DNA of 64,000 nt from an uncultured Verrucomicrobiota bacterium (GCA_964516325.1 CAZFAP010000004.1:3073-67072), one strand, 5' to 3'. Numbered from the stretch's first letter, positions 6,904 to 54,875 are shown. Made by a program: numbers and translations. The notes: generated by a model not told the origin, from the letters alone.

Positions 6904-7270
6904 CCGAGCTTCGACCGTTCCTGCAAATCCGCGCCGGGGCGCTCAACCTCTTTGGGCGCTCCGGCTTTTTGTCACTCGCAGGCGCGGTGGCGCGAAGATG
7001 CCGCTGTGTTTTCCTGGCATAGCTGTGGTCTGTTCCCCTCATCATAGGGATGGACGGCACCGAAAGGCCGCAGCGGACGAACTTGTTGCGCCCTATGCTC
7101 GCGTTCGCCGTTGCTGTGCGATGGGTATCTTGCCCGCCAAGGACCTGCTATTGAGGGGTGCTGCCAGAGGCAGGATGCCGCCGAGAATTCCATGGCATGC
7201 AGGTGCCTTCTCCCCTTTCCCCAAAATCGCGCGCGGCCAGAACCGGTTTCACGGCCATCCGCTTTATTCG

Positions 7271-7299
7271 TTGACACCGCCACCGTTTTCGGGTTACTT
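7271..7299 (+). promoter_or_regulatory. Putative promoter of the NHL-repeat gene
   Basis: TTGACA (7271-7276), a 17-nt spacer, then TTACTT (7294-7299), about 40 nt upstream of the RBS AAGGAGG and the ATG at 7339. Confidence 0.3.
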
Positions 7300-7338
7300 T
7301 CTCTGCCGAAAACTTGCAAGTTAAAAGGAGGGGATGCC

Positions 7339-9348
7339 ATGAGAACACAAAAGCGATGGAACATTGCTGCTTCGGGCCTTACGGTGTTGTTCGTCTCTGG
7401 CGTTTTTCTGACCGGAGACGCCAGCGAGTCCTACTTGTTTGTGAGAGCGTGGCCGCCCGTGGGTGACGCTTGGAGTTTCAGTGGGCCCTGCGCGGTGGCG
7501 GTGGACTCATCCGGAAGCGTCTTCGTAGTTGAGAGCTGGGGCGACAGAGTCAAAAAGCTCGACTCGTCGGGAAAGTGGCTTGCTGAGTGGGGTGGTCCAG
7601 GTGGCCCGGACGGAGAATTCGACGAACCCTCGAGCATCGCCGTGGATTCAGGAGGAAATGTGTATGTAGTTGACAGCGGCAACAACAGGATCCTGAAGTT
7701 TGACGGGGGCGGGAGGTTCATCCTGAAGTGGGGCAACGAGGGCGACGGAGACGGAGAGTTTGAGAATCCGCACGGCGTGGCGGTAGATTCATCCGGAAAC
7801 GTCTACATAGCCGATACGTATAACGACAGGATTCAAAAGTTCGACTCGTCCGGAAAGTTCTTAGCCGAGTGGGGCTCGGAAGGCTCCGGTGATGGGGAGT
7901 TCGCCAGTCCTTATGGCGTCGCCGTAGATTCATCCGGAAATGTCTATGTAGCCGATAGCTATAACAACAGAATTCAGAAGTTCGACTCGTTGGGAAACTT
8001 CTTAGGAAAGTGGGGCTCCTTAGGCGACGCCGACGGAGAGTTGGACAGTCCCCATGGCGTGGCCGCAGATTCATCCGGAAATGTTTATGTAGCCGATACC
8101 GTTAACGACAGGATTCAGAAGTTCGACTCATCGGGAAAGTTCTTGGCAAAGTGGGGCTCCTGCGGCAACGCCGACGGAGAGTTCGACAATCCGCAGGGCG
8201 TGGCCGTAGATTCGTCCGGAAACGTCTATGTAGCCGATACGTACAACGACAGGATTCAGAAGTTCGATACGCAGGGAAATTTCAGGGTGACCTGGAGCTA
8301 CACAGGTTACTCAGATGGTGAGTTCTCCTGGCCCACAGGCCTGGCCGTTGATCGCTCGGGAAGCATCTACATCGCAGACACTTGGAACAGCAGAATCCAG
8401 AAATTCGATTCCTGCGGCAAATTCACGGCTGCCTGGGGCTACTACGGCCGCGGCAACGGAGGGTTTGAGGACCCCGAGGGCATAGCGGTGGATTCATCCG
8501 GGAACGTCTATGTCGCAGATACCGGCAATCACAGGATCCAGAAGCTCGACTCCTCCGGCAGGTTTCTTGCCGCCTGGGGTTACCTGGGTTCGGATGACGG
8601 GGAGTTCTTCATGCCGAGCGGCATAGCCGTCAACCCTTGGGGAAACGTGCTTGTCGCAGATACGGGAAACGGCAGAATCCAGAAGTTCGACGCCTCGGGA
8701 AAATTCCTGCTGAAGTGGGACCTGGAAGGCGCGGCCGCTGGACGATACTCATACCAGCACGGCATAGCCATTGACTCATCGGGAAATGCCTACGTGCCGA
8801 CTTGGAGCTCGATTCAGAAATTCGATACATCCGGGAAGCTACTGTGCGAGTGGGGCACGGGCGGGAATGGCGACGGCCAACTCTCGGGGCCCTCAGGAAT
8901 AGCAATAGATTCATCTGGCAACCTCTTCGTCGTGGACACGTACAACAACAGGGTTCAGAAATTCGATCCTACAGGCAGGTTCATCACCAAATGGGGTTCT
9001 CTTGGGTCCGACGATGGAGAGTTCTATGAGCCGACCGGGATAGCTGTCGATTCGTCGGGAAATGTCTATGTCGCCGACACCCAGAACGACAGAATCCAGG
9101 TGTTCCAACGTGGTCCAAACATTCGGATCACGGGCTCGGCCGATTCTCCCCTCGTCGAATGGGATAGCGAAGGAGGCGGAAACTACAGGCTGTGGCTGTC
9201 CGCGGACCTTTTCGATTGGATAACGGCCGGTGGCATTCAGCCGGCCTCGCCGCTGGGCATCAACATGTGGATGGACGACGGCGTGCACACCCTCGGCCCG
9301 CCTCACAAGGCGGGACGCCGCTTCTACCGGGTCGAAATCCTGCAATAG
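7339..9348 (+). CDS. Secreted NHL-repeat beta-propeller protein (12 NHL repeats) with a C-terminal FN3-like RFYRV module
   Basis: RBS AAGGAGG 7 nt upstream of the ATG. Signal peptide [26 protein letters not shown]. Twelve ~47-aa repeats of the form [43 protein letters not shown]. C-terminus ...[22 protein letters not shown]...[12 protein letters not shown]. Confidence 0.85.
   Translation: [669 protein letters not shown]
7489..9110. repeat. Tandem ~141-bp coding repeats (NHL units) inside the NHL gene
   Basis: Twelve consecutive near-identical 47-codon units are visible at the DNA level, for example recurring gattcatccggaaa(c/t)gtctatgtagccgatac. Confidence 0.7.
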
Positions 9349-9350
9349 TT

Positions 9351-9378
9351 GCCCTCGGCGCCACACAGGATGGACACG
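9351..9378 (+). repeat. Conserved 28-mer GCCCTCGGCGCCACACAGGATGGACAGG, copy 1 of a motif also at 61834-61861 (inverted) and 63844-63870
   Basis: Starts 3 nt after the NHL stop codon. It is 27/28 identical to the reverse complement of 61834-61861 and ~24/27 identical to 63844-63870. Confidence 0.6.
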
Positions 9379-9584
9379 ATGTCAGATTAACCGCGGATGC
9401 ACGCAGATATACACTTTTCTATCTATCTGCGTTCATCGGCGTCCATCTGCGGTTCCTGATCATCGCGTGAATTCTGTTATCCCGTCGAGCTTCTTCTCTG
9501 CGCCCTCTGGGGTCTCGGCGGTGAAAAAGGGACGCGCCAGGGGCTGTTGAACCACAAAGCGGCTGCGGACGCGGGGTCTGGCCC

Positions 9585-10594: not shown

Positions 10595-10660
10595 GGAGCC
10601 ACCGCAGAGAACGCAGAGGATAGATAGTTGTGGCACCCCGCCTCTGGCGGGACCCGTGAA
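10595..10660 (+). repeat. ~65-bp direct repeat, copy A; copy B is at 13282-13355
   Basis: CACCGCAGAGAACGCAGAGGA...GGCACCCCGCCTCTGGCGGGACCCGTG versus CACCGCGGAGAGCGCAGAGGA...GGCATGCCGCCTTTGGCGGGACCCGTG. The two copies bracket the C45/hydrolase gene. Confidence 0.5.
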
Positions 10661-13281: not shown

Positions 13282-13355
13282 TGGGGACTCACCGCGGAGA
13301 GCGCAGAGGACGCCCCCCGAAGGCGGGGTGGCATGCCGCCTTTGGCGGGACCCGT
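13282..13355 (+). repeat. ~65-bp direct repeat, copy B (see 10595-10660)
   Basis: Sequence identity to copy A as described for that feature. Confidence 0.5.
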
Positions 13356-13581
13356 GTCCCGAGGGCACACCTCCAACCGCCTGGGGCGACGAAACCCACG
13401 GTCCTGTCAATCCCGTACATCCTGTTCATCCTGTCCAACTTTCCCCCTTCCCGGCGTTCCTCGCGACCCCTGTGGGTCAATACCAACAACCCGACCACCC
13501 GTAAGTGAGGCGCTACATCAAATGCAGGAAATCTTATCCTCCGCCGGAGACTGAGGCCTTACGCCGAATAAGACTTTTCTC

Positions 13582-13611: not shown

Positions 13612-13819
13612 CATTATCAAAATAGGAATGATATCTCGGTTTGCTGACCGAATCCCACTCGCGGGAGCTTCAGAGATGGCGTCGCCAGGATTGCCACTTC
13701 GTCTGAGGCGCCTATGCGGGTCCGTCCCTACCACACAGGCTGGAGGCGGTGAAAGACGCGGAAATGGATTTGGTCGGGAACTGAGGGAAGTCAGTGCCCG
13801 GCTCACCCGGGAGGTAAAG

Positions 13820-15937
13820 ATGAGAAGGCGGCTGATTGTTGGTTGCGTCATCCTATGCGGCTCGCTTGTGTCCGTTCGGGACGTTAGTGGGACGGCGCCA
13901 GCGTGGCTGGCTTGCGAGAACTGCCACCGGGAAGGGGCGATGCTCGAGACGCTGAAGCACCACAAGCTGAGCAGCTCAGACCTAACGCTGAGGGAGGCTC
14001 TGGACGAATGCGTGGGATGCCACGAGCCGGGGCTCCAAAAGGGGGAGAAGTCCTTTTCCTACAGGGTCCATCGGATCAGTGGGCACAGCATCTACGAAAA
14101 GGCCTGCGCCGTATGCCACGCGAATTCGGAAGGGAACGATTATCCGATGGCATGGGACTGCGGGACCTGCCACGCCACACACAAGAACGGCGAGGCTTTT
14201 CCGAGCAATCAACCGTGCATGGACTGCCACGACGGAAGTCAGGCGGCGACTGCCGACGCTGCTCACGAGATTCCTCCAACGGAATACCAGACATCGGGGC
14301 TGTGCAAGGACTGCCATCGCACCGACTACGACAAGTGGAGAAATTCGTCCCACAGCCGGATCATCCGAGAGGTCGGCGACCCGAAGTACACGGGCACAAA
14401 GTTTGGGGTTCTGGGGACCTGGGCCGACGGGACCTGGTCGCAGTTTTCGTTGAGCGATCCGAACGCCGGGATTCCCCCGGTTACCGTGTACACAAAGGCG
14501 GAGGGGGGGGTGTACAAGTTGAAGCTTGGCGACCCGGTGACAGGGCCCGAATATACGGTGGCGCGGACCCTCGGGGGAGGAAACGCGTGGAAGCAGCACT
14601 TTCTGACGAAGATAGGTTTAAGTCACTACATTCTTCCGATGCGGTGGGTTGAAGCGAAAAATGTGTGGGCCGCATACGGACTGAAAGACTGGTTTGACAC
14701 GGCGGGGAATCCAAGAACCCCGGCGAAGGGGCGCTCGTATGAGCGAAGGTGCGCCGGCTGCCATTTCACGACATCGTCCTCCGTTGCCTATAACGAGACG
14801 AGCCAGGAGTATTTTCTGACTTTCGGGGAGTCAAACGTGGGTTGTGAGAGGTGCCACCGTCCCGCGGGCGGGCATCTCAATGCCGGCGGCGGGCCCGGAG
14901 TGGGAACGATCAATCCAGCGACTTTCCCGGACAAGTTGCAGCGAGGAGAGTTGTGCGGGCAGTGTCACTCCCGCGGTTCGAGCGTCTATGTCAACGCGAG
15001 CGACGGGTTATCCCGAGACTACCCGTGGGCCGCAGCGACCCTCGAGCACCCACAAGGAAGAGGGTATCAGCCGGGAGAGAGCCTCTGGAACCTCTATAAT
15101 CTCATTTCACCGCCGGACCCCGACCTATGGGGAGACACCCCTCCCACCTCGAAGGGGCATCGCCAGGAGTGGCTGGACTTCCAGAATAGCCCCCACTACG
15201 AGCCGGCGAGCATGGCCTGCTGGGACTGCCACGACTCCATGGGTTCGACCATTCCGCATGAGTTGAAGTGGCAGAACGACAATAACGAACTTTGTTTGCA
15301 TTGCCACGGGACGGGTGAGGGAGGCTCGGCGTCGTCCCAGTTTGCCAAACCTTATGACGTCGAAGTCCCCAAGCACACGCGCCACGCCTACAACCCGGCA
15401 AACAATAACCCGCCCGACCCCGATGGGTACGGTCAGAGCCGATGCACCAGGTGTCACATGCCGAAAGTCGCCATATCGGCTGCGCCTTATGACGTTCATG
15501 CTCACACGTTTGAGACCCTGGTTCCCGCCAGCACTCTCGAATTGGCGATGCCGAGCTCCTGCGCCGTGAGCTGCCACCGCAAATATGCCAATGCGGCGCC
15601 CGGACGTCCGGGGTACGGCGACTACTCTTTGTCTGATTGGACTGAGGAGACCGACAGGAAGCTGGCGGCCTATCTCTCGAAGTTCGAGGAGGCGTGGTTC
15701 GAGGGGAAGGCGCACGTCCTGGAGGTGGTTTATTCCGCTAATTTTGTCACGTTCACATGGGTCTCCGAAGAGGGGAAGACGTACGTGGTTTACCGGGCTG
15801 ATGGACTGGGAGCCTCGGCGACGTGGAATCTCCTGGCGGAGGTCCTCGGCAAAGCCGGAAGCAGAACCTCGTCTTTCACGGACACCGACATCATCGGTCC
15901 CAGTTCCCGATTTTACCGAGTTCTCGGTGTGGAGTGA
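13820..15937 (+). CDS. Secreted multihaem c-type cytochrome with 12 CxxCH motifs and 1 Cx3CH, and a C-terminal FN3-like RFYRV module
   Basis: RBS GGGAGGT 5 nt before an ATG giving the signal peptide MRRRLIVGCVILCGSLVSV. Haem motifs: CENCH, CVGCH, CAVCH, CGTCH, CMDCH, CKDCH, CAGCH, CERCH, CGQCH, CWDCH, CLHCH, CTRCH and CAVSCH. C-terminus ...FTWVSEEGKTYVVYRADGLGASATW...SSRFYRVLGVE. Confidence 0.85.
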   Translation: MRRRLIVGCVILCGSLVSVRDVSGTAPAWLACENCHREGAMLETLKHHKLSSSDLTLREALDECVGCHEPGLQKGEKSFSYRVHRISGHSIYEKACAVCHANSEGNDYPMAWDCGTCHATHKNGEAFPSNQPCMDCHDGSQAATADAAHEIPPTEYQTSGLCKDCHRTDYDKWRNSSHSRIIREVGDPKYTGTKFGVLGTWADGTWSQFSLSDPNAGIPPVTVYTKAEGGVYKLKLGDPVTGPEYTVARTLGGGNAWKQHFLTKIGLSHYILPMRWVEAKNVWAAYGLKDWFDTAGNPRTPAKGRSYERRCAGCHFTTSSSVAYNETSQEYFLTFGESNVGCERCHRPAGGHLNAGGGPGVGTINPATFPDKLQRGELCGQCHSRGSSVYVNASDGLSRDYPWAAATLEHPQGRGYQPGESLWNLYNLISPPDPDLWGDTPPTSKGHRQEWLDFQNSPHYEPASMACWDCHDSMGSTIPHELKWQNDNNELCLHCHGTGEGGSASSQFAKPYDVEVPKHTRHAYNPANNNPPDPDGYGQSRCTRCHMPKVAISAAPYDVHAHTFETLVPASTLELAMPSSCAVSCHRKYANAAPGRPGYGDYSLSDWTEETDRKLAAYLSKFEEAWFEGKAHVLEVVYSANFVTFTWVSEEGKTYVVYRADGLGASATWNLLAEVLGKAGSRTSSFTDTDIIGPSSRFYRVLGVE

Positions 15938-16135
15938 TTCTCTGAAGACTCTGCCGTCGGCGTGAACCGCGGATGTAGCTGGCCACGGGGCAATGAGCCG
16001 CCGAATTCAGCGGATGGAACCGCGGAATCCGGATGCTCGGTTTTCATTGCTTGGAGAGAATAAGTCGGCTGTCCATGGGCCTTTTGTTCGGGTGGCGCTG
16101 TTTCTGAAGAGGCGGGAGGAAGGAGGAAACCGTAC

Positions 16136-19100
16136 TTGCGTAACAGGCTTGGGACACGGAGGATAGGAGGAAGATTCGTGAAATCGGACAGGCATACGTT
16201 GGCCGGGCGCCTGGCGCTGCGGGCAATAGGTTCTCTCTGGCTCGCTTTCGTTCCGGGCGTGCTCACTGCTCAATCGCAGGGAATCGAATTGCTTTCCGAG
16301 CTCTCGCCTCCCTTGAACGGACAGTATTACGTGGGAGGGGAAAACGTCACTCTGACGGTCCGCGCCAGGGACGGCGGGGGTGTTGAATTCACGAACACGG
16401 ACGACATTGCGCTCCTTACCTACTATGTCAGCGGTCCGCGGCAGGATTATCGCGGCGTGATTCGTGACCAGAAGCTTATATCCGGGTTGGATTCGGGAGT
16501 CTCCTATCCCGCAGCGGGATCGTTTTCAATCCCCGAGTCGCCCCGGCCGGGCTCCTACTCAATGCTCATCCGACTGGTCACAAGAGCCGGGGAGGAGGGA
16601 TATAGCCTCAAGCACTTCAAGGTCGGTCAAGTTCAGAGCACGGTTCCGGGGTCGCTCCCCCCTCAGGGATGGATGGGATGCGAGAAGTGCCACGAAAACG
16701 GCAACATCGGCCACTACCGTCCGAAAGGCCTGGCGCTGACCGGGTCCATCGAGTATTGCCTCGTCTGTCACGCGTGGGAAACCGAGAAGCCTTTCGGCCC
16801 CACGATGCACGTCCTCCAAGAACACGACAGTCTGAAGATATTCCGGGACTACCCGAATTCGTGCGCGGTATGCCACACCGGCTCCGAAGGGAATGACTTC
16901 ATAAGCAAGGCCGCCTGTCGGTCGTGCCATCCGAATGTCGGTCCCACGGGGCACTTCGGGTTCGATTGGCCGGACAATACCTGCACCTTCTGCCACAACG
17001 ACGTCTTCGCCGCGAAGCCGGACACCATTCACAGGATCGAGCCGGGAAATTATGTAACCTCGGAGACTTGCGCGAATTGCCATGCGGACCAGTACCAGCG
17101 CTGGGACAAGACGGCTCACGCCCACGCCCTGAAACCGACTGACTCGACCTTCCGGGGAGGCGTTATTGGCAACTTCTCGCAGAGTCCCGTTTTGAGCGAC
17201 CCCGCCAACAACGTTCCGCCAGTGACGGTTTACCTTTCCAGGGAGGGAGCTACACACAGGGCGACCCTCGGCGCGGGGGGACCGACGTACCCGGTGGACC
17301 GCGTCGAGGGAGGAGGGAGCGGATGGAAGCAGCGATACCAGACCAGGATCGGCAACAGCTATTACACGCTCCCCATCCAATGGAACGAGAAAGAGGGAAA
17401 GTGGGCAGCGTTCGAGCTGCACAAGTGGTTTGACGCGCAGGGAAAGGCGAAGACTCCCGACAAGTCCGATTCCTTTGAGAGGAGATGGCTGGGCCGCTAT
17501 GCCACGAACCTACAAGTGTCCTTCGACAGCGTAACCCGCGAGTACATGGGGACGCATTCCGAACTAAACATCGGGTGCGAGGGCTGCCACGGTCCCGCCA
17601 GCGGCCATATCAACGCTGGAGGCGGCTCGGAAGGAGTCGTCAACCCGCGGGACTTTGCTCGAGACCGGGCGGGGGAAGTTTGCGGGCAATGCCATTCACG
17701 AGGAGAAAGCACTTACGTCAATTCGACCGGTGACGGGAAGCGGAGGGAATATCCCTGGTCGCCGCAGGACAAGGGCTTCCGCCCCGGAGACATCCTTTCT
17801 AATTTGTTCACCTTTACGACCTCTTTTCTGCACTTCTGGCCGGACGGCACGGCGAAATCCGAGAACCAACAGCACATGGACTATATCCACAGCGTGATGT
17901 ACTCCGCGCCTGGGGAGAAAGTGACGTGCTTCAGTTGTCACGACTCGCATGGTTCGCCGAACAACTACGACCTGGTCGCCTCGACAAGAAGGGACGGAGT
18001 CGAGATCGCCACGAAAAATGAAGACAACACCCTGTGCCTCTCCTGCCATGCAGGAAGAGGCGATTTCGCCGAGATCACGAAAGAGATGGTGGCCAATGCG
18101 GCGCGGAACCTGGCGGCGATCGGTGCGGTTGTGTCAAAGCACACGGCTCACGAGCTCTACTTCCCCATGGGAGAGGGCTTCACGGCGGTGGGGCGTTGCT
18201 CCCGCTGCCACATGCCGAAAGTAGCGACGTCCGCCGTGCCCTACGACATCCACTCACATACGTTCCGGGTCATCGAGCCGGACAGGACTCTCACCCACTC
18301 GATGCCCAGTTCGTGTGCGGCGAGCTGCCACAGGGATATTTCGAACCTCGTTCCGACGGCGCCAGGGTCCGGCGATAGGACGCTGACAAATTGGGGCGAG
18401 CCTACGGATGTGGACCTCGCGAAATTCCTCAAGGGATTTCATCACCAATGGTACGAATACGGTCCGCTCCTTCCCGAAGTTGCAGACAGCGATGGAGACG
18501 GCATGCCGGATGACTGGGAAACGGCGCATGGACTTCTGCCCGCATTTGCGGGGGACGGCTCCGCCGACCCGGACGGCGATACCTACACGAATCTGCGGGA
18601 ATATCTCGGAAGCAGCGATCCTCAAGACGCCGACTCGAAGCCCTACTCCGCCAAGGTTGAGGTCCTTTCCGTGGCGCCGCGGCTGAACGAAAAAGACGCC
18701 CAGGGAAATAGGATCGTCACCAGCGGGTTGAGCAATGTGCCGGTGGGCACGTATGTGAGGTTATCCGGCAGCGGCGCGGACTGGGAGGGGAAGGCTGTTC
18801 CGAGCTACTCGTGGACGGTGGTGGGCCCTCCGGATTCCCTATCGGCTCTCGATAACCCTTCTGCCGAGACGGTCAACTTTGCCCCGGATAGAGAAGGGCA
18901 GTATCGGGTCGAGCTACGGGTGGGAGACGCGGCGCCGACAGATTCCCCGACGGCGGTGCAAATCATCACGGTGGGCACGTGGTTGGGGAAGGAAAACTGC
19001 CAGGTCTGCCACAGCGGGCGCTACGCGGAAAGGCCCGGCTGGGAACTGGCCGACTTGTACACACCCTGGACGGAGACCCACCACGGGACCGCTTTCACGC

Positions 19101-20695
19101 GGAAGATCAGCGGGCTGAGCTCCTTCAAGGACAGTTGCGTCTATTGCCACGTGGTCGGGGACGACCGGGCGCCCGCTGCGGTCAACAACGGCTGGGACGA
19201 TTGGACCAAAGCGTTGGGATGGACCTTCCCCACGACGATCGAGCCAGCCAACTGGAGCGCCATCCAGAAGAAATACCCGCAACTGGAAAACATGGCAAAC
19301 ATCCAGTGCGAAAACTGCCATGGGCCGGGCAGCGAGCACCGCGCGGGAAAGGGCGTCATCGGCGTCAGCCTGAAGTCCGGCATCTGCGGACAGTGTCACG
19401 ATTCGCCAACCCATCACATCAAGAATTACCAGTGGGATACCTCCGCCCATGCCCACGCCTTGCAGGCGGCCGGCGGTTTTCCTTCCCGAAGCGCCAGTTG
19501 CCTGAAGTGCATGACAGCGGAAGGGTTCGTGGACGTTTTCGTGAAACAGAAGCCGACGGAGGTCATCGAGGACCCCAGTCCCGTCGGCTGCGCGACATGC
19601 CACGACCCACATACCGACGCGTTTGAGCACCATTTCCGCTTCTACGGCCTCGTGCAATTGCCCAACGGCACGAAGCTCAACGCCGGAAGGGGGGCAACAT
19701 GCTTTAAGTGCCACACGAATGACGGGGCATACCCCGGTCATCAGGCACGGCACGATCAGGCGGAGATGTTCAGCGGGACAGGAGGAGCGGAGTTCCCCGG
19801 AGTCCGATACATGTCCAGCCGCCATGCGATGCTCATCCCGGACACGTGCGTTCGCTGCCACATGTTTGAGACTCCGCCAGAGGGCGAGCCGGGACGTTTC
19901 CTCGTCGGGGAACACACGTATAAAGTGGCGTATGATAACAACACTCCGGACGACCCGGCGGACGACGTTTACAACGTGCGCGCGTGCGCTCCGTGCCATA
20001 CGGGACTGACGAACTTCAACATCAACGGAACCCAGGACCACATCACAGCCCTCACCGGTGAGCTCGAAGCATTGCTCCCAAAAGAGAACGGCAAAATCCT
20101 CTATGAGTCCACCCCCACCCGGACGCTGACCGAGGCGGAGAAGGACGCCGCGTTCAACTACTCCTTCGTTGCGGCGGACCGGAGCCAGGGGGTTCACAAT
20201 GCGCTCTACGCAAAGCAGTTGCTCTGGGATTCCATTACGGCGCTGGACGCCGACCACGACGCATCGCGAGATGAAGTGGACGCCGACGCGGATAGCGACG
20301 GCGTCGCGAACGCGGCGGACGCCCTCCCCCTGGACACGGACAATGATGGACAGCCCAACCTCATTGACCCGGACGACGACAACGATAGCGTTTCCGATTT
20401 GGAGGAATATGCCGCGAAGGGGGACTTCTTGAGCTTCTTCCCCTACTTCGTAGTGAAAGAAATGACGACCGACACCGACGGAAACGTGGTCGTTCGCTGG
20501 CAGTCTGTCCCCGGCAAGACGTACAGCATACAGTACGCCAATGTGGGAGGGACGACTCTGGAGTGGCACGTCGCCGAGCCGAGCTTCCCCGCCGCGGCAG
20601 GGAACGAAACCGCCTGGACCGACGATGGGACGAAAGCGAATCCGCCGTTGCCTGCGGTCCGCGGGAGATTCTACAGAATCCTCGTGAACCAATGA
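16136..20695 (+). CDS. Secreted giant multihaem c-type cytochrome (~1500 aa) with 19 CxxCH motifs and 1 Cx3CH, Asp-rich Ca-binding linkers and a C-terminal FN3-like RFYRI module
   Basis: A TTG at 16136 (RBS AGGAGG 9 nt upstream) or a GTG at 16178 (RBS TAGGAGG) could be the start. The central ~450-aa module is paralogous to the upstream cytochrome. An extra 8-haem C-terminal region is present. Thrombospondin-type-3-like DxDxDG stretches (DSDGDGMPDDWE; DADSDGVANAADALPLDTDNDGQPNLIDPDDDND). Ends ...RWQSVPGKTYSIQYANVGGTTLEW...RGRFYRILVNQ. Confidence 0.85.
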   Translation: MRNRLGTRRIGGRFVKSDRHTLAGRLALRAIGSLWLAFVPGVLTAQSQGIELLSELSPPLNGQYYVGGENVTLTVRARDGGGVEFTNTDDIALLTYYVSGPRQDYRGVIRDQKLISGLDSGVSYPAAGSFSIPESPRPGSYSMLIRLVTRAGEEGYSLKHFKVGQVQSTVPGSLPPQGWMGCEKCHENGNIGHYRPKGLALTGSIEYCLVCHAWETEKPFGPTMHVLQEHDSLKIFRDYPNSCAVCHTGSEGNDFISKAACRSCHPNVGPTGHFGFDWPDNTCTFCHNDVFAAKPDTIHRIEPGNYVTSETCANCHADQYQRWDKTAHAHALKPTDSTFRGGVIGNFSQSPVLSDPANNVPPVTVYLSREGATHRATLGAGGPTYPVDRVEGGGSGWKQRYQTRIGNSYYTLPIQWNEKEGKWAAFELHKWFDAQGKAKTPDKSDSFERRWLGRYATNLQVSFDSVTREYMGTHSELNIGCEGCHGPASGHINAGGGSEGVVNPRDFARDRAGEVCGQCHSRGESTYVNSTGDGKRREYPWSPQDKGFRPGDILSNLFTFTTSFLHFWPDGTAKSENQQHMDYIHSVMYSAPGEKVTCFSCHDSHGSPNNYDLVASTRRDGVEIATKNEDNTLCLSCHAGRGDFAEITKEMVANAARNLAAIGAVVSKHTAHELYFPMGEGFTAVGRCSRCHMPKVATSAVPYDIHSHTFRVIEPDRTLTHSMPSSCAASCHRDISNLVPTAPGSGDRTLTNWGEPTDVDLAKFLKGFHHQWYEYGPLLPEVADSDGDGMPDDWETAHGLLPAFAGDGSADPDGDTYTNLREYLGSSDPQDADSKPYSAKVEVLSVAPRLNEKDAQGNRIVTSGLSNVPVGTYVRLSGSGADWEGKAVPSYSWTVVGPPDSLSALDNPSAETVNFAPDREGQYRVELRVGDAAPTDSPTAVQIITVGTWLGKENCQVCHSGRYAERPGWELADLYTPWTETHHGTAFTRKISGLSSFKDSCVYCHVVGDDRAPAAVNNGWDDWTKALGWTFPTTIEPANWSAIQKKYPQLENMANIQCENCHGPGSEHRAGKGVIGVSLKSGICGQCHDSPTHHIKNYQWDTSAHAHALQAAGGFPSRSASCLKCMTAEGFVDVFVKQKPTEVIEDPSPVGCATCHDPHTDAFEHHFRFYGLVQLPNGTKLNAGRGATCFKCHTNDGAYPGHQARHDQAEMFSGTGGAEFPGVRYMSSRHAMLIPDTCVRCHMFETPPEGEPGRFLVGEHTYKVAYDNNTPDDPADDVYNVRACAPCHTGLTNFNINGTQDHITALTGELEALLPKENGKILYESTPTRTLTEAEKDAAFNYSFVAADRSQGVHNALYAKQLLWDSITALDADHDASRDEVDADADSDGVANAADALPLDTDNDGQPNLIDPDDDNDSVSDLEEYAAKGDFLSFFPYFVVKEMTTDTDGNVVVRWQSVPGKTYSIQYANVGGTTLEWHVAEPSFPAAAGNETAWTDDGTKANPPLPAVRGRFYRILVNQ

Positions 20696-20898
20696 GTCAT
20701 GGGGTCGGCGGGCCTACAAGTCAGAGAGTTCGGGTGTAGGGCGGATGCAGCCCGGGCACGACCGGCAGCACGGGTCTCACGGCTGCTCAAAGCCGATTGG
20801 AGCGACGGGAGTGTTTGTCAGGTCAGACAAGGCGGCTCCCGGAGTCTGAGCCGCGGTTGGGTCTGCTTGATGCTTGCGTGGAGAGGGAGGATGAGTGA

Positions 20899-22251
20899 TT
20901 GTCGCGCGGCGCTCGGCCCGAGGAGCTTGAAAGGGGCTGGCAATCAATCGAAACTGTAAAAAGGGCTCAACCCACACTCCTGGTTCTGCTCATTTTGTGG
21001 CGGGTCTTCTTGCCGGATTCCGGAAATGCAGAGGGTCCCGAGGAGCAGCGCCGCCCCCACCTCTCCGGTGAGGTCTCTACCAGATACCGCACGCAATGGA
21101 ATGCGGACGATACCGACCATAATTTCCTGCAGTACCTCAACTTTGACCTCAAGAACCTTCTGACGCCAAAACTTTCTCTTCACGGCTTTCTGCGCGCCGG
21201 CGAGGACCTTGACGACTCGGACCCGATTTTCGACTGGACGAACTACGACGTTCAGGACCGCATTTACGACCTGTATCTGGAGGGCGAGGGCGTCATCCCG
21301 TATTCTTCTTTTCGCGCAGGACGCCAGTATTACGATGGCCTGGAGGGAGTCCAGTTTGACGGGCTGCGATTCTTTCGGGACGAGGGGAGATGGTTGAAAT
21401 GGGGAGCCATCGGAGGAAGGTACGTGAGCTTTTATGACCGAGACCTTCAGCGAGATTCCATGGTCGCGGGCGCCCACGCGACAGCGTCCTTTCTCCGGGG
21501 CGCCTCTTTCTCGACTGAATACCTCCGGCTCATGGGCTTTCCAACAGGGGATGACGACTACCTCGGTTTCGCATTTCAGCAGCGCTTGGAACGGCTCAGC
21601 TCTCTCACGCGGTATTCGGTCCTGAACGGTGAATCCAGAGACGTCTCCACCCGTGTTTTCTGGGTTGTGGGGAGCGGCTGGGAGGTCTCCGCCAAGTACT
21701 TTCGTCTTCTTCACTCCATTGAAGAACTCTCGAACGAATTCGACCCGTATTACCCTCTTTTTGGCGCTTACATGGGATTCCACCAGTACGATGTGGACGT
21801 GACGAAGCATGTCGGCGACCGGTTCTCCGTCTCGGGCGGATATGCCGCCCGGAGACTGGTTGGGGAGGAGGTGGAGAGCGTGGCCAATAGGGAGTTCGAC
21901 AGGTACTACGCATCATTCTCGGCACGGGACGTGCCGACACGGGATTTTGGGGTCTTCGCGACGATCGAGCGGTGGCTCGCGAGCGACGGCGAGGAGAACT
22001 ACAGCGCCGGCGGGGAAGTCAGCTACAGGTTAAAACGCAAGCTGGATGTGGCGGTGGGGACGTATTACTCGAAGTACAAATACGACATAGACACGATCAC
22101 GGAAAAAACGGATGTCCGGAGCGTGTACGCGAGAGTGAAGTATCACTTCAATCCGAAAGCCTACCTTTCCGTGAAAGCGGAGAGGGAAGACGATGACTCG
22201 CCGGAATCTCCTTACGGCAGGGCTGAGATAAGGATGACCTACAGGTTTTGA
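20899..22251 (+). CDS. Putative outer-membrane beta-barrel (porin-like) protein
   Basis: TTG start with RBS GGGAGGA. N-terminal signal-like hydrophobic stretch. Alternating aromatic/hydrophobic beta-strand pattern throughout. Terminal Phe (…RAEIRMTYRF). Only 36 bp upstream of the next cytochrome gene. Confidence 0.55.
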   Translation: MSRGARPEELERGWQSIETVKRAQPTLLVLLILWRVFLPDSGNAEGPEEQRRPHLSGEVSTRYRTQWNADDTDHNFLQYLNFDLKNLLTPKLSLHGFLRAGEDLDDSDPIFDWTNYDVQDRIYDLYLEGEGVIPYSSFRAGRQYYDGLEGVQFDGLRFFRDEGRWLKWGAIGGRYVSFYDRDLQRDSMVAGAHATASFLRGASFSTEYLRLMGFPTGDDDYLGFAFQQRLERLSSLTRYSVLNGESRDVSTRVFWVVGSGWEVSAKYFRLLHSIEELSNEFDPYYPLFGAYMGFHQYDVDVTKHVGDRFSVSGGYAARRLVGEEVESVANREFDRYYASFSARDVPTRDFGVFATIERWLASDGEENYSAGGEVSYRLKRKLDVAVGTYYSKYKYDIDTITEKTDVRSVYARVKYHFNPKAYLSVKAEREDDDSPESPYGRAEIRMTYRF

Positions 22252-22287
22252 AAGGCAGAACTCATTTGCCGGAACGACGGCCAACCT

Positions 22288-23424
22288 ATGAGAAAGAGGA
22301 AGAACAAGATTAGACGGAAGAAGATGGGCTTTCTGGCAGGGGCAGCGAGCAGTGTTACTCTGGTCTCGGTTCTTCTATCCCCGCAGATATACGGGAGACC
22401 GAAGAAGGCGGACCTCATTTTCAGCCATAAGCAACACATCAAGGAAATGGAGCTTACCTGCGACGCTTGCCACGAAGGCGCCGCAAAGGAGGAAACAGCG
22501 GGTCTGCCATCGGAGAGCACCTGCCAAACCTGCCATGACTTCGACAGGGAAAAGCCTTCCAAGGCATGCCTGACCTGCCATTCCTCCGTCGAGGTGAAGA
22601 TTGCCAGAAGGAAAGGGGCTGAATACGCCGATGTGAGTTTCTCGCACGTGAAGCACGCGAACGTAGAATGCAGTGATTGCCATCCGGGCGTCGAGAAAAG
22701 CACCGAAATCGAGCGAGGGAAATACATACCCTCGATGGAGCAGTGCCTGAAGTGCCACGCGGAACTCGGTGTTTCTCAGGAGTGCCAGAGTTGCCACAAG
22801 GTTCTGCGAAAGGAGGAAAGGCCCGCTTCACACGGTGCGGGTTTCGACCGCGCCCATGGAAGGCTATCCGAGATGAGGAATGCCCGGTGCGCCGTGTGCC
22901 ACCAGAGCCGGTTTTGTCAGGAATGCCACCTCAGCCAGGAACCCCAGAGCCATACCTTTCTCTGGAAGACGAAAACCCATGGTCGCTTGTCCATGATTGA
23001 CCGGTCGAGTTGCCAGACCTGCCACAGAACCGATTTCTGCGTCGCGTGCCATTCCGAAACCCGTCCGACCAACCATGCCGGCGGCTGGGGAAACCCACGG
23101 AACACGCACTGCCAGAGCTGTCATCTTCCCCTCTCGACGAGCGGCTGCGGCGTTTGCCACAAGACCACGGAGTCGCACTTCAGCGTTCTCCCCGGAGACC
23201 ACGTTGGGAACTACGCCATAGCGCACTGTGCGAAATGTCATTTTCCGGTCAACGCGACCGATTGCGGGCTGTGCCATGCCCGAGTAAACCATGAGTCGGC
23301 CCCAGATGTGGATTGGCACCCTGACAACTGGCGGGATTGCCGTGCTTGTCATCCGTCCATACTCACACCGAAGCCTCGGCATCCCGACCCAGGACTGGGC
23401 TGCACGAGGTGTCACAGGATTTAG
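22288..23424 (+). CDS. Compact 16-haem c-type cytochrome (periplasmic, N-terminal membrane anchor or signal)
   Basis: 16 CxxCH motifs in 378 aa, about 1 haem per 24 aa, with many extra His residues for bis-His ligation. N-terminus MRKRKNKIRRKKMGFLAGAASSVTLVSVLL. Confidence 0.85.
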   Translation: MRKRKNKIRRKKMGFLAGAASSVTLVSVLLSPQIYGRPKKADLIFSHKQHIKEMELTCDACHEGAAKEETAGLPSESTCQTCHDFDREKPSKACLTCHSSVEVKIARRKGAEYADVSFSHVKHANVECSDCHPGVEKSTEIERGKYIPSMEQCLKCHAELGVSQECQSCHKVLRKEERPASHGAGFDRAHGRLSEMRNARCAVCHQSRFCQECHLSQEPQSHTFLWKTKTHGRLSMIDRSSCQTCHRTDFCVACHSETRPTNHAGGWGNPRNTHCQSCHLPLSTSGCGVCHKTTESHFSVLPGDHVGNYAIAHCAKCHFPVNATDCGLCHARVNHESAPDVDWHPDNWRDCRACHPSILTPKPRHPDPGLGCTRCHRI

Positions 23425-23675: not shown

Positions 23676-23787
23676 TTTTTTTGACGGGATAACCCCGCCT
23701 AAGGCGGGGTCAGGGCAGGACCAGACTAATCCGGGTCATCCTGTAATCTTGTCCAGAAAAACACGTGATTGAACTTGTCCACCGCAG
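23676..23787. repeat. Composite intergenic repeat element, copy 1 (TTTTTGACGGGAT, a CCCCGCC-N-AAGGCGGGG hairpin, GGGTCATCCTGTAA and TTGAACTT modules)
   Basis: Shares ordered sequence modules with 47397-47545 and 60537-60668. Confidence 0.5.
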
Positions 23788-23873
23788 AAATAACCCGCAA
23801 CCCTCAAGGGAACTGACGAAGTCCGCAGGTGGAACAGTCCGGCAGGGGGCGGGCGACAACGGGAGTGTAAGTC

Positions 23874-25690: not shown

Positions 25691-25837
25691 CGTCACGCGG
25701 GGAGCCTTTTCATGCACCACCAAGGCACGAAGACACAGAAATACCTTCGCCCAAAGGTCATCTCTCCCTTGTGTCCTGGTGTCTTGGTGGCGCCCCGCCT
25801 CAAAGTTGCCATCAGGGGGACGACATTCCCACCGTCT

Positions 25838-25867
25838 CCCGGTGAACGAAGTTCGTGAGCGACTGCG
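25838..25867 (+). repeat. 30-mer CCCGGTGAACGAAGTTCGTGAGCGACTGCG, near-identical to 63607-63639
   Basis: 28/31 identity. Contains the palindromic core GAACGAAGTTC. Confidence 0.45.
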
Positions 25868-26202
25868 AACAAGGAAAGAAAAGACTCGGCTGATTCCTTC
25901 GGCAGACGGACGTATGGGTTGATGCGGGGCAGAAGGCGCGTTCGAGTCGCGACAGGAATTTGTCCGGACCGTCAGACGCTGACTCTTCTGGGGCGGGATG
26001 CCACTTTCCTTTCGACCCGGCTGCGGCCCCCACGCTTCGTTGTCCGCCCAAGACGGAGGGGTTACAGACCAGGGTTTTTGCCCTCGACGCGGGCAGCAGC
26101 GTTTTGGTAAAGTTCCCCCATGTCCCGAGGTTCCGGTATGCTCTTGCAGCGGCCGGAGCATCGAAGGGAAGAAGCGGATACAACATCGAGGAGGATTTCA
26201 AC

Positions 26203-47003: not shown

Positions 47004-47396
47004 GTGGGAGAAGAGATTTTCCAGGTAGATGCGTTCACGGACAGAGCCTTTGCAGGGAATCCGGCTGCGGTCTGCATCCTGAAAAAGGCACGCGATGACG
47101 ACTGGAGGCAGAACGTGGCAAAGGAAATGAACCTGTCGGAAACAGCGTTCTTGCGAAGGGGACATGACCATTTCAGTTTACGTTGGTTTACGCCGGTCGT
47201 GGAGGTTGAGTGGAAACCCGATGTCCGTCGGGAGGGCCGGAGTCTTTCTCTTGAGGAAAGTGAGGCGTTATCGCGGAATCTCAGACTCTTCCCGCGCCCT
47301 GATCGGGTGGGATCACGCGTAGTCGCCCGCCGCGGCGCCCGCCCCATTGTGCTTCAAGTAGTAAGCACACTAACTCATAAATCCAGTAACGTATGA
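47004..47396 (+). pseudogene. Truncated PhzF-family (phenazine-biosynthesis-like isomerase) gene fragment
   Basis: Intact N-terminus EIFQVDAFTDRAFAGNPAAVC...LSETAFLRR...LRWFTPVVEVE. It then diverges and stops at ~130 aa, against ~280 aa expected. A repeat element begins immediately downstream. Confidence 0.5.
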
Positions 47397-47545
47397 ACCC
47401 CCGCGGAAGGCGGGGCGGGGGACGCTCTTTTTGACGGGATCAGGGGATATACAGGATGCCGTAAAGCGGCACCAGACGAATCGGGGTCATCCTGTAAATG
47501 CTGTCAAACAGGACGCCATTGAACTTATGAACTTCAGCACTACGT
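47397..47545. repeat. Composite intergenic repeat element, copy 2
   Basis: Contains CCCCCGCGGAAGGCGGGG, TTTTTGACGGGAT, CGGGGTCATCCTGTAAAT and TTGAACTTATGAACTT, homologous to copies at 23676 and 60537. Confidence 0.5.
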
Positions 47546-48178
47546 TGCCCCTTCTGGGCCCGTCGTAGGTCTTTGCCCCGTCGAGTTCCCTGCTTCCCGG
47601 CGGAGGCTTTCGACCCTCTGCTCTGCTCTTTGGGCAAGCTTTGTCCCCGGCCAGTTCTGGATGATCTTTGAGAGCGTTGCGATGGCGGCTTCCGTGTCTC
47701 GGAGGTTCGTCTCGTAAATGTCCGCAATGCGGTTGAGGACAGAAGCGGCCTGCGCCGTGCTGATCGGCAGTGTCAGGCACACCTGCAGTTCAGAGATCGC
47801 CCGACGAAAGTCCTTCATTTCCCGGCTGTAGATATCGGCAATCTCCAATCGCAATCCGAGGTCTTCGGGCTCCTCCTCGAGTGCGAGCCGAAACTCGGAG
47901 ATTGCCTCCTCGAATTGCCCCTGGGTGGCCAGCCATTTCGCCCGCGAGTAGTCTTTCTTAGTTTTCCCCTTATCCGGGGCGTAGAGCTTGTTGATGAGGC
48001 CGCCCGATACGGCCCCCGCGAGAGGATAGCAGGTCAGAGCCGCTATGAAGACGAGGATTATGATGGCGAGGAAGAGTCCCCATCCGAACTGCTCCGCGAA
48101 CAGGATGCGGACGCCGATCAGTGCGACGACCAAGGCCAGGACGCTCCCCAGCCAAACGGCTTTCAGCATGCCTCTCAT
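47540..48178 (-). CDS. Membrane-anchored TPR-repeat protein, a paralogue of the next gene
   Basis: N-terminal TM helices plus a TPR region. About 50% identical to the 48252-48851 protein (...ADIYETNLRDTEAAIATLSKIIQNWPGTKLAQRA...). Confidence 0.6.
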   Translation of the reverse strand: MRGMLKAVWLGSVLALVVALIGVRILFAEQFGWGLFLAIIILVFIAALTCYPLAGAVSGGLINKLYAPDKGKTKKDYSRAKWLATQGQFEEAISEFRLALEEEPEDLGLRLEIADIYSREMKDFRRAISELQVCLTLPISTAQAASVLNRIADIYETNLRDTEAAIATLSKIIQNWPGTKLAQRAEQRVESLRREAGNSTGQRPTTGPEGAT

Positions 48179-51563: not shown

Positions 51564-54176
51564 CTATCTCTCGATGCCCATCATTTTCAGTTGGGTGCTC
51601 GCCTCGACCCCAAACGGCCCGTGTGAATCAAGTTCCATCGTACGCCGGAACGCCTCCACAGCCCGCTCCGGCTCGTTCATTCTGCGATAGACTTTTCCGA
51701 GGTTCAGGCTGAGCAATGGATCGTTCGGTCGGATATTGGACGCCGCGCGAAGCTGACCCAGCGCATCCTCGAAACGTCGCACTTCCGCATAGACAAGCGC
51801 CAGCGCCGCTCGGCTCGGCACGCTTTCTGGCCTGTTCCTGACGGCTATCTCCTGCTCCGCGATGCTCTTCTGATAATACTCGATAGCCTGCGAATCCTCT
51901 CCGCGTCTCTTGTGAAAATTGCCCATCATCTGATAAGCCAGGCCCATGCCGAGGCGGGCGTCCGCGTCCTCCGGGTCGCTCTCAATCGCCTCCTTATAAC
52001 GCTCCATTGCTGCCGCGGGGGCATCTCGCCGTAAGTCCATAGCAGCAACGCCGTTCAGCGCCTGGACCCGATAATCCGGGAAATCTTTCCGTGTCGCTTC
52101 GTATTGCTCCTTCGCCTTCTCAAGGAGGTGGAGGTTTTCGTACGCCCTCGCCAAACCCAGCCGGGTCAACGGCCCGATCTTCATCCTCAGAGCGGTCTCA
52201 TACTCTTCCCTGCTGTCTTCCCACCGCCGCATGTTCGCATAGACCGTTGCGACATTGAAATGAATGTCCGAGCCGTCCGGAGCCAACTCCGCCATGCGAA
52301 GGTACGCCCGCAATGAATCCTCGAGTTTCCCTTGAAGATTATAGCAGTGGGCAAGCTTATAGTACGCGGATAGATTATAGCGATTCCGTCGGACCGCGTC
52401 GTCATAGTGCCTGGCTGCCTCATCCAGAAACGCTCTTTTCCTGTCCAGTGCGGCGACGAGCTTCTCGGCGGACAGGCCGCGCAACAGCACGTTCTCCGCG
52501 GCGGTCTGGTAGCCTTCACCTCTCCTTGTCAGAACGGCAGAGTCCCAGATTCGTTTTTCCCACCATCCGGCCGCGAATAGGAGGCCGCCGACTGCGAGGA
52601 CTACGATGGCACGCAGGATCGGCTTCCTGATGGGCTTGACCTTGATCCGGTAGAACCGCCCCCTCTCGTTGGCAATGACCTCGCCTCTTCTCGTTTTACT
52701 TTTCTCCGTGCCGGCCAGCCCGCTCATCCCGCCGACAGCCATCGCCAACCCCAAGCCCAGCCAAAGGAAGAATCGCCCCACAACCCATCGCGTCGTTACA
52801 CACACGACTGCCTGAAGTAAGATCGCACCGCAGCCCGCCGCCAACCCCGCGAGTGCGAGGCGATGAAGCTCGTTCCCGGCCCGGCTTGTTCTCCGCAGGC
52901 TTTCCCAGAAGAATGCCCCGATTATCCACAGGAACGCCGCCAGCCCGATCACCCCCATCTCCGCCGCTATTTCCAGGTACTCAGAATGAGCGTGGAGGGT
53001 GTTGGGCATGATTTTTACGGCTGTCGCGGGGTCTCGGAATCGAGGGAAATAGATGCTGAATGTCCCCAGCCCCCAGCCGAAGATGGGACGCGCCTTCACC
53101 ATGTTCAGCGTCCCCGCCCAGATTACTTTCCTTGCCCGCACGGAACCCTTCTCCACCTCAAACGCGGCTTTCATCCTGCCCCGGATTTCGTCTCGGTTCA
53201 CGAGCCCGTTGGACGCGAAAATAACCGTCGCCAGAAGCGACACCGCCCACGCGGAGTTGCTCGTGAAACAGACCCTCCTTTGACGGCTCAGAACCCGGAG
53301 CACAATCGCCGCCGCAACCCAGAACGGAAGCGCCCAGAGAATGACATATCCTCTCGCTTCCTCCGTCGTGAGAAGCGCGAACATGCCCGCCGCGATGGCG
53401 ACCGTCGGAGCCGCCAGAATCAGTCTCAACCGTTTCTCCGGCACAGAGAGAAGAAACCAAGCCGGTAATGCTCCGAGGAGCCCAAGCCACGCTCCTCGCG
53501 ACTGCGTGTAGAGGAGAGAAAGCTCCGCTCCGCAGATCAAGATGACGAGAGAGGCCTTCACGAACGGGCGCTGGCTCGCGAAAAAGACGCTCAGCAAAAC
53601 CGGCAGTGCCAAGACCAGAAACGACCCAAAGAAATTCGGGTGCCCCATGGTCGAAAGCGAACGTTCGGAGCTTGGCAGCGATGCGTCTTCACCGTACAGC
53701 GGGTCAAAACCATAATGTTGCGCGATCGCGTACATGCAACCAACGAAAGCAACGACCGCGAGGGCTCCGAGCACAACCATGAGTGCTTTCTTGCTTGTGA
53801 CGCCCCTCGCAGCAACAACGAGGACCATCGCGCAGCATGCCATGCTCAGTAGCTCCTGGACGCTCGCGTATTTGTAGCGGGATAGCAAAGTGGAGACCGC
53901 GGCGAGACAGAGATAAACCCCGAGCGGAAGCGTCATCCTGGAACGCGGAATCAAAAACTCTCCCCGAAAAAGGCCGGTCAAAACAAGAACCAGAAAGAGC
54001 GCTGCCGCGAGCCAGCAGAACAGAAGGTTCTTTATGAGAGTGCTGTCTTTCGTCGTCAGCGCGACCGCCAGCCCCACGATGCCGATCGTGACCACAAGCC
54101 CGATCAGCATGGTCAAGCCTACGACATCTTTTTCGTGTGGAGGTTTGTTTTTAGCTCTGTGGCTCACAAGTTCCAT
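51564..54176 (-). CDS. Polytopic membrane protein with an O-antigen-ligase (Wzy_C) domain and a C-terminal TPR domain
   Basis: About 12 TM helices. Wzy_C-type motif HAHSEYLEIAAEMGVIGLAAFLW. About 350 aa of C-terminal TPR repeats. Confidence 0.7.
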   Translation of the reverse strand: MELVSHRAKNKPPHEKDVVGLTMLIGLVVTIGIVGLAVALTTKDSTLIKNLLFCWLAAALFLVLVLTGLFRGEFLIPRSRMTLPLGVYLCLAAVSTLLSRYKYASVQELLSMACCAMVLVVAARGVTSKKALMVVLGALAVVAFVGCMYAIAQHYGFDPLYGEDASLPSSERSLSTMGHPNFFGSFLVLALPVLLSVFFASQRPFVKASLVILICGAELSLLYTQSRGAWLGLLGALPAWFLLSVPEKRLRLILAAPTVAIAAGMFALLTTEEARGYVILWALPFWVAAAIVLRVLSRQRRVCFTSNSAWAVSLLATVIFASNGLVNRDEIRGRMKAAFEVEKGSVRARKVIWAGTLNMVKARPIFGWGLGTFSIYFPRFRDPATAVKIMPNTLHAHSEYLEIAAEMGVIGLAAFLWIIGAFFWESLRRTSRAGNELHRLALAGLAAGCGAILLQAVVCVTTRWVVGRFFLWLGLGLAMAVGGMSGLAGTEKSKTRRGEVIANERGRFYRIKVKPIRKPILRAIVVLAVGGLLFAAGWWEKRIWDSAVLTRRGEGYQTAAENVLLRGLSAEKLVAALDRKRAFLDEAARHYDDAVRRNRYNLSAYYKLAHCYNLQGKLEDSLRAYLRMAELAPDGSDIHFNVATVYANMRRWEDSREEYETALRMKIGPLTRLGLARAYENLHLLEKAKEQYEATRKDFPDYRVQALNGVAAMDLRRDAPAAAMERYKEAIESDPEDADARLGMGLAYQMMGNFHKRRGEDSQAIEYYQKSIAEQEIAVRNRPESVPSRAALALVYAEVRRFEDALGQLRAASNIRPNDPLLSLNLGKVYRRMNEPERAVEAFRRTMELDSHGPFGVEASTQLKMMGIER

Positions 54177-54828: not shown

Positions 54829-54875
54829 AAATTCAATCACGTGTTTCTCGACAGGATTTACAGGATGAACCGGAT
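54829..54875 (+). repeat. ~45-bp direct repeat, copy 2
   Basis: See copy 1 at 54173-54216. Confidence 0.45.

Follow-up and report, generated by a model that had tools for sequence, protein, structure and literature searches.

A repeated 28-mer in a planctomycete chromosome: probable core of composite small interspersed repeats that form a species-level family

The window analysed here, a single stretch of DNA of 64 kb, contains three copies of a 28-mer (GCCCTCGGCGCCACACAGGATGGACAGG), which were located in a mismatch-tolerant search of both strands and are referred to as copies A, B and C. Copy A is solitary and without cargo; the two genes beside it, one with NHL repeats and one for a xylose-isomerase-like TIM-barrel protein, converge on it with their 3' ends. 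Copy B is found between the divergent gene X and C10 peptidase gene, and copy C lies ~450 nt downstream of a tRNA gene, with the window ending 130 nt beyond. The repeat unit containing copy B has gene X downstream of it and shares its orientation, with some 360 nt between this gene and the 28-mer. The main features are:

9351-9378, + strand: 28-mer copy A, one mismatch
61834-61861, − strand: 28-mer copy B, exact, no mismatches
63844-63871, + strand: 28-mer copy C, three mismatches
60671-61471, − strand: gene X, a secreted 266-aa protein with no Pfam match
61978-63228, + strand: C10 (streptopain-like) peptidase gene, remnant, between copies B and C
63313-63387, + strand: tRNA-Arg(TCT), intact

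The window comes from a planctomycete, as the named homologues of the TIM-barrel protein are annotated as Planctomycetes, Pirellulales or Thermoguttaceae, and the window encodes DUF1559/N-methyl proteins. Within the NHL gene, positions 7495-9100 consist of about ten tandem 141-nt (47-aa) repeats, which are 60-75% identical in DNA. Elsewhere in the window, positions 13628-23424 carry three large genes for multihaem cytochromes c of 769, 1519 and 378 aa, in which MtrC/MtrF-like domains are found, in a cluster which also holds a 450-aa ORF without a Pfam match and is followed by a histidine kinase/response regulator pair; judged by its domains, this cluster is possibly an extracellular electron-transfer locus in a planctomycete.

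The initial annotation had described a near-identical 28-mer at three loci, conserved far above the intergenic background, and both statements hold: matches were obtained at 9351 (+), 61834 (−) and 63844 (+), with 0 in 100 dinucleotide shuffles and a chance expectation of 0, and the sequence belongs to a true repeat family. The gene context that it gave was equally accurate, with copy A starting 3 nt past the stop codon of the NHL ORF (7111-9348, with an NHL Pfam match) and copy B located 116 nt before the ATG of the C10 gene at 61978 (~115 nt had been stated). The C10 gene, the tRNA-Arg(TCT) and a pair of ~80-bp direct repeats (63424-63501 vs 63739-63826, 73-81% identical) were all located between B and C, as had been claimed. 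The inverted identity of B and C is also real, but the ~37 bp reported for it was too short: the two arms (61835-61905 and 63800-63870) match over 71 nt at 87%, and form the longest inverted repeat in the window. Collinear homology was found further outward (61713-61765/63875-63927, 53 nt, 81%) and further inward (61931-61959/63564-63592, 29 nt, 79%).

The gene between B and C was compared with 1.8 billion representative proteins, and residues 2-362 of its product align to residues ~100-460 of homologues which are 568 to >2000 residues long. The signal peptide and the N-terminal ~100 residues are missing, and the beta-helix domain is cut after about residue 362, so that on these alignments the C10 gene inside the B/C pair is a decayed remnant, truncated at both ends.

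When the three regions were compared with the window by BLAST, a second conserved module became apparent downstream of the 28-mer in A, B and C, with A 9459-9525 matching B 61768-61699 (70 nt, 80%) and C 63875-63927 matching B 61765-61713. As this second module is common to all three copies, the repeat unit is not the 28-mer but a modular sequence of 90-370 nt. The full B-type unit measures about 210-260 nt and is a fixed series of short modules. Reading unit B from 61959 down to 61699, the TCTGCTCTGAAAATGAGCG head (also written TGAAAATGAGC) is followed by tandem GCAAAG words ending in GGTGGACCGGATAA, a perfect 7-bp hairpin (TGGCGCC-CTC-GGCGCCA), ACAC and two ACAGGATNN words, this 9-nt word being present in two or more tandem copies after the hairpin in the full unit; then come the spacer CATTTTGTGCGAATTTTCTTTGG and further ACAGGAT words, first sense and later antisense, and the tail consists of CGAATTTCTTC, tandem CTCTCCGCG (CTCTGCG) words and a terminal GCGGTGA. 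The units and their parts in the window are:

9351-9525, + strand: unit A, consisting of the 28-mer, a private CGCAGAT/ATCTGCG centre and module 3
61699-61959, − strand: unit B, consisting of module 0, module 1, hairpin plus 28-mer, spacer, words and GCGGTGA
61849-61865: GC hairpin in B, TGGCGCC-GAG-GGCGCCA, 7-bp stem and 3-nt loop
63564-63932, + strand: unit C, with the module order of B, a 207-nt insert and a shortened module 3
63564-63592, + strand: module 0 of unit C, homologous to B
63593-63799, + strand: insert of unit C, 207 nt, with a separate conserved motif, ATCTGCG words and the second direct-repeat copy
63800-63843, + strand: module 1 of unit C, followed by the 28-mer (63844-63871) and the shortened module 3 (63875-63932)
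63840-63856: GC hairpin in C, TGGCGCC-CTC-GGCGCCA
63421-63501, + strand: partial fourth copy, module 0/1 (GCAAAG words) only, without the 28-mer
13284-13313, − strand: lone CTCTGCGCTCTCCGCGGTGA module (end of module 3), without the 28-mer

Unit A aligns with unit B over 30 nt at 97% and 70 nt at 80%, and lacks module 1 and the 5' arm of the hairpin; it starts inside the hairpin loop, and hence the hairpin cannot form in A. Its module 3 comprises antisense ACAGGAT words, CGAGCTTCTTC, CTCTGCG words and GCGGTGA. The partial fourth copy is the first member of the direct repeat pair of the initial annotation, and matches B 61961-61879 over 83 nt (72%) and 63739-63826 over 88 nt (73%). Arrays of ACAGGAT words at 13399-13434 lie near the lone module at 13284-13313, and a piece of the tail module also stands alone at 10599-10623. 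All copies in the window are intergenic, and modules 0-3 occur in one order in B, in C and in two further copies on other contigs (P0276 and P0277, see below), with A as a truncated form. Units A and C look to be deletion or rearrangement derivatives of a B-type unit, and the 28-mer, which is made up of the hairpin loop, the hairpin 3' arm and the first two ACAGGAT words, can be read as the best-conserved core of a larger patchwork repeat in non-coding DNA.

The additional copies P0276 and P0277 were found by searching with the concatenated six-frame peptides of unit B. They are located on other contigs, present only in NCBI (16.4 and 11.8 kb), and the window does not encode them; their alignments to unit B cover 210-252 nt, with an amino-acid identity of 62-68%. 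The ORFs over these two copies were called in two different reading frames, and the conservation is therefore at the DNA level rather than the protein level. Both contigs presumably belong to the same genome as the window, and by these alignments the repeat is a dispersed family of non-coding DNA with at least five members; since additional copies become visible only where a gene caller has placed an ORF, there are probably more than these. A GTG supplied by each hairpin copy (61846 on the − strand, 63859 and 9366) opens a spurious ORF whose product begins MWRRG(R/Q), and as gene callers have placed ORFs over the repeats (P0275-P0277), the family contaminates protein databases. Two independent short-read Logan assemblies of the same strain break off within 0-12 nt of the 28-mer's 3' boundary, as is expected at a multi-copy repeat.

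Scans for GCCCTCGGCGCCACACNGGAT in genome and viral collections gave either chance matches in unrelated taxa or no matches, and in metagenomes gave a single true relative, a 1-kb contig of a sister strain (L006); the species is thus barely represented in public DNA collections. A second contig of this sister strain (L023, 2.4 kb) was recovered via the 90% cluster of gene X, and is 96.7% identical to the window over 60612-61960, including a perfect 28-mer. The homology breaks at 61960-61977, where 16 nt in the window stand against 241 nt in L023, then resumes over 61977-62199 (97.8%), which are the first 223 nt of the C10-like gene, and ends at 62199/62200, beyond which the L023 gene runs straight into a beta-helix domain without a C10 domain. 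An earlier reading of L006, according to which the C10 gene is absent from the sister strain with the break exactly at the inner edge of arm B, was corrected in its details by L023. The interior of the B/C pair is variable between strains, with the breakpoints inside it and arm B staying with its neighbours. Unit B of the sister strain has also lost 17 nt as whole words (ATCATCCCGTGAATCCT, L023 1245-1262 vs window 61752-61768), which removes about two word units and is a length polymorphism of the kind expected from slippage. More distant relatives show synteny on the downstream side of gene X, and upstream of it they have genes with no relation to C10 or the tRNA.

The C10-like gene itself differs by a whole domain between these ~97% identical strains (61978-63228 vs L023 229-1173): in the window it has a propeptide start, a C10 domain and a truncated beta-helix, whereas the L023 version is longer by 45 residues at the N-terminus, lacks the C10 domain and has an internal stop in its beta-helix. 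The difference points to recombination between paralogous members of a family of secreted protease/beta-helix genes.

The 7-nt and 9-nt words which make up much of the unit are not restricted to it. With both strands counted, the window has 16 ACAGGAT words in its 9.2 kb of intergenic DNA, against 10 in the 54.8 kb that is coding (1.73 vs 0.18/kb). In 127 kb of loci from related genera, gathered via homologues of gene X and of the TIM-barrel gene, the corresponding densities are 1.14 vs 0.07/kb, usually in a 9-nt phase, and those of CGCAGAG are 0.76 vs 0.05/kb. The ACAGGAT heptamer, or 9-nt ACAGGATNN word, is thus enriched 10-16 times in intergenic DNA in the window and in related planctomycete genera; neighbouring units are typically 9 nt apart, and ACGGGAT occurs as a variant. 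The CGCAGAG/CTCTGCG and CGCAAAG words behave like ACAGGAT, and all are found in either orientation in convergent, divergent and tandem intergenic regions alike. The hairpin half GGCGCCCTCGGCGCCACAC was absent from the 127 kb of related-genera loci, including the regions upstream of the gene X orthologues. The relative L019 has a word palindrome between the stop codon of the TIM-barrel gene and a canonical bidirectional terminator, and L018 has only the terminator at the equivalent position; the word arrays thus behave as optional inserts. The ACAGGAT arrays are located at:

Window: 9365, 13401-13434, 23729, 47442-47504, 54198, 54851-54914, 60620, 61742-61847 and 63831-63890
Relatives: L011 6813-6837, L018 2153-2170 and L019 3718-3750

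With regard to folding, unit A is the only one of the three units with a predicted structure of significant stability, which is centred on the following feature:

9354-9489, + strand: imperfect palindrome in unit A, 136 nt, 46 pairs, with the 28-mer as left arm and 9462-9489 as right arm

The 28-mer here is predicted to pair with the antisense words of the tail module (RNA dG −73.2, z −3.3; DNA z −3.5, with 0/200 shuffles as stable). Units B (z −1.0 to −1.4) and C (z −0.2 to −0.3) fold no better than their shuffles, though pairing is possible, and the GC hairpin is predicted in both, on either strand. A search of Rfam 15 gave no match other than the tRNA, either at the gathering threshold or at E <= 1.

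The initial annotation had proposed a small mobile or mobilisable cassette carrying the C10 gene and tRNA-Arg, with B and C as its terminal inverted repeats and the tRNA as its possible target. This proposal can be judged against these results, and we regard it as very improbable. Inverted repeats are indeed present, the 71-nt arms plus the two collinear segments bracketing about 1.6-2 kb, and the bracketed content differs between close strains and is not syntenic in other genera. The arms, however, are themselves copies of a dispersed repeat, which occurs alone at 9351 and on two other contigs, and neither copy A nor the other-contig copies are known to be paired around cargo. Target-site duplications were looked for and none was seen: the outer flanks of the short arms (...cacaaaatg/cgcaatccgg...) and those of the extended arms (...gacacaaatggc/cgagagtcaggc...) contain no direct repeat. 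Pfam searches of the 44 ORFs across the 64-kb window gave no transposase, integrase, recombinase, HUH or Y1 enzyme or RAYT gene; the 3' 22-mer of the tRNA has no second copy in the window at <=3 mismatches, and hence there is no tRNA att repeat, which together with the lack of an integrase also speaks against the tRNA as an insertion target. Moreover, the supposed cargo is truncated at both ends, no plasmid or phage similarity was found in the collections except at the tRNA, and the sister-strain breakpoints (61960-61977 and 62199/62200) are inside the segment rather than at the repeat ends. The segment 61834-63870 is not simply present or absent between strains, as comparison of its left end shows arm B plus 223 nt of interior retained in L023. 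Unpaired copies without cargo, which in the hundreds had been said to make the motif a simple REP-like element, do exist in kind, though not in hundreds. What survives of the proposal is that the repeats form a true family, that they look like mobile or recombinogenic DNA, and that the 28-mer is an inverted-repeat arm in copy A, of the 136-nt palindrome and not of the 2-kb segment. We also considered B and C as duplicated upstream regions of paralogous genes, and rejected this, as there is no homology beyond the GCGGTGA module and copy A is not followed by a gene in its own orientation. On the sequence comparisons B and C are best described as two units placed head to head by coincidence in adjacent intergenic regions.

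The reading which we favour, and consider probable, is that composite small interspersed repeats form a family, at the level of the species, in this planctomycete chromosome, and that the 28-mer is their core and not a cassette boundary. In non-coding DNA, and in intergenic regions, we found separated copies with a recurring order of modules, as described for the composite repeat class of BOX, NIME and BIME elements, where separated copies under ~200-300 bp have a recurring order of sub-sequences (PMC3049150). As this general definition applies and the specific families do not, the repeats were filed as a new family of composite small interspersed repeats. The BOX elements of Streptococcus pneumoniae consist of boxA, a variable number of boxB and boxC (PMC3049150), and resemble our units in being composite, intergenic and under about 300 bp, with fixed end modules and an internal tandem array of varying number, in having an extensive predicted secondary structure and no enzyme of their own, in being confined to one species and its closest relatives, and in attracting spurious ORF calls. 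There is, however, no sequence similarity between them, GC content is high here, the words are 8-10 nt long rather than the 45 nt of boxB, no insertion sequence with matching ends is known, and about 5 copies were seen here vs >100 for BOX.

REP sequences are imperfect palindromes of 20-40 bp, tagged by GTAG or CGTC at one end (PMC3733652). Like the REP/BIME elements of enterobacteria, our units combine a short GC-rich extragenic palindrome with short motifs in a mosaic arrangement, and are found between convergent genes and at other intergenic positions in both orientations, but their palindrome is 17 nt with GGATAA and CACAGG as flanks and no adjacent GTAG/CGTC, and the 64-kb window contains no RAYT gene or Y1 transposase. 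MITEs are AT-rich and generate target-site duplications (PMC3049150). Unit A recalls the MITEs Correia (of Neisseria), RUP and ERIC, being a non-coding, intergenic palindrome with outer arms like terminal inverted repeats and a variable centre. It differs from them in that the units are not AT-rich, with a GC-only stem and GC-rich words (CTCTCCGCGGTGA and GCAAAGCCGCGAAGC among them), the G+C content of the window being 55-62%, in the lack of flanking duplications at A, B or C, and in that the homology runs past the palindrome into the CTCTGCG...GCGGTGA module, while B and C fold like shuffles. The STRR heptamers of heterocystous cyanobacteria are words of 7-9 nt, tandemly repeated 2-4 times in intergenic regions and common to related genera; here the words and the phylum are different, and the arrays are embedded in longer composite units with a hairpin. 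No account of such a repeat family for this planctomycete lineage was found in the searchable literature.

Under the composite-repeat reading the units would spread, or would once have spread, as non-autonomous DNA, either by means of an enzyme in trans which recognises the hairpin and word core, or through recombination or slippage between word arrays. The combination of sense and antisense words may produce a long hairpin when the DNA is single-stranded or transcribed, and could in this way alter mRNA 3' ends or stability. The repeats may also act as breakpoints for local rearrangement, which would explain the truncated genes beside them (the C10 remnant and a PhzF remnant, described below). 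Some of the data do not sit easily with this reading: its mobility component finds no filled vs empty site polymorphism in the strain data compared, with about five copies seen; the significant folding is limited to unit A; the units are not AT-rich and lack target-site duplications, unlike classical MITEs; and conservation of the 7-mers across genera could reflect a host function such as a protein-binding site.

In two alternatives the sequence acts as a protein-binding site or as RNA. One, the other possibility named in the initial annotation, is a cis-regulatory DNA site maintained by selection, with GGCGCC-N3-GGCGCC as the operator of a dimeric regulator and the ACAGGAT array as sites for an abundant protein. 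The 15-bp palindrome is perfect in B and C, unit B is upstream of gene X in its orientation, and the ACAGGAT words are conserved across genera, intergenic and in a 9-nt phase; yet some 360 nt separate B from the start of gene X, no hairpin half is present upstream of the gene X orthologues or in the 127 kb of related loci, copy A is without the left half of the palindrome and, situated between the 3' ends of two genes, has no obvious operator target, and the words occur in both orientations in all types of intergenic region alike. The 28-mer is 100% retained in the sister strain against a background of 96.7%, but at a divergence of ~3% a perfect match over 28 nt is statistically uninformative, and overall we think this explanation unlikely. 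The TCATCCTGT sequence has what we take to be a resemblance to the DnaA box (TTATCCACA), for which a literature check found nothing.

We are similarly doubtful of a role as RNA, in which a UTR or small-RNA structure would terminate transcription, block exonucleases or be the target of an RNase or RNA-binding protein. It is plausible for unit A, which starts 3 nt past a stop codon in sense orientation and has the 46-pair hairpin at z −3.3, and is unsupported for B and C, where the folds are not better than shuffles. The word palindrome of L019 in the 3' UTR ahead of a terminator is in line with such a role, as is the terminator-like site formed in B by the 28-mer words, the spacer and a U-rich tail; this site over the 28-mer is weak and G-U-rich, is found in B only and not at A, and the GC hairpin has no adjacent U-run, hence an intrinsic terminator was rejected. 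Further points against an RNA role are the lack of an Rfam match, the inconsistent orientation relative to the flanking genes and the loss in the sister strain of 17 nt of the pairing partner, and the copies are too few for a covariation test. CAGGAUG presumably resembles the repeated CsrA-binding motif of CsrB, although a literature check found nothing, and a reading of it as a purely RNA-level CsrA site does not fit the data on word orientation.

The distribution of the words across genera allows a broader variant of the host-function idea, which we would not put beyond a tentative suggestion, and which has the phased ACAGGATNN arrays as a clade-wide planctomycete cis-element read by a conserved host factor, and the GC hairpin as a species-specific elaboration. 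Such a factor might work on DNA, as a nucleoid-associated or a termination/antitermination protein, or might be a CsrA-like protein that recognises CAGGAUG motifs in RNA. If this were true, the 28-mer loci would be unusually strong cases of an undescribed genome-wide intergenic mark.

Two other intergenic sequences were encountered in the window. An unrelated second repeat family of about 100-150 nt, made up of a T-run plus GACGGGAT, a CCCCGCC-N4-GGCGGGG hairpin, GCACCAGAnnAATCnGGGTCATCCTGTAA and CACGTGATTGAACTTGT, is present in five copies in both orientations. One of these directly abuts the PhzF remnant, a 130-aa ORF matching only positions 1-65 of the 281-position PhzF profile, and thus another truncated gene beside an intergenic repeat. 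In addition, a conserved motif of ~45-75 nt (…TGAAAATGAGCC…ACATTCTCATGNTCTCCGGGTGAACGAAGTTCATGAGCNACTGCGG) is shared by two loci in the window and a different genus at 84-86%. A HEAT-repeat gene (25960) starts ~100 nt downstream of it, and in L011 it falls within a called ORF of 70 aa; it has no Rfam match at the gathering threshold, and could be a promoter or a small RNA. The coordinates are:

23680-23801, 47398-47548, 54151-54227, 54804-54958 and 60545-60630, both orientations: copies of the second repeat family
47004-47396, + strand: PhzF remnant
63570-63640 and 25800-25868 in the window, L011 11680-11750 and L012 4107-4150: TGAAAATGAGCC/ACATTCTCATGNTCTCCGGGTGAACGAAGTTCATGAGCNACTGCGG motif

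These results remove a false lead, in that the C10 protease and tRNA-Arg are not a mobile cassette, and put on record what is probably a family of composite interspersed repeats in an uncultured planctomycete lineage. The repeat breaks short-read assemblies, draws spurious ORF calls and adjoins truncated or rearranged genes, and it thus matters for the quality and annotation of metagenome-assembled genomes. Finally, that its words are common to related genera, with a strong enrichment in intergenic DNA, hints at a conserved mobilising enzyme or host factor in these planctomycetes.
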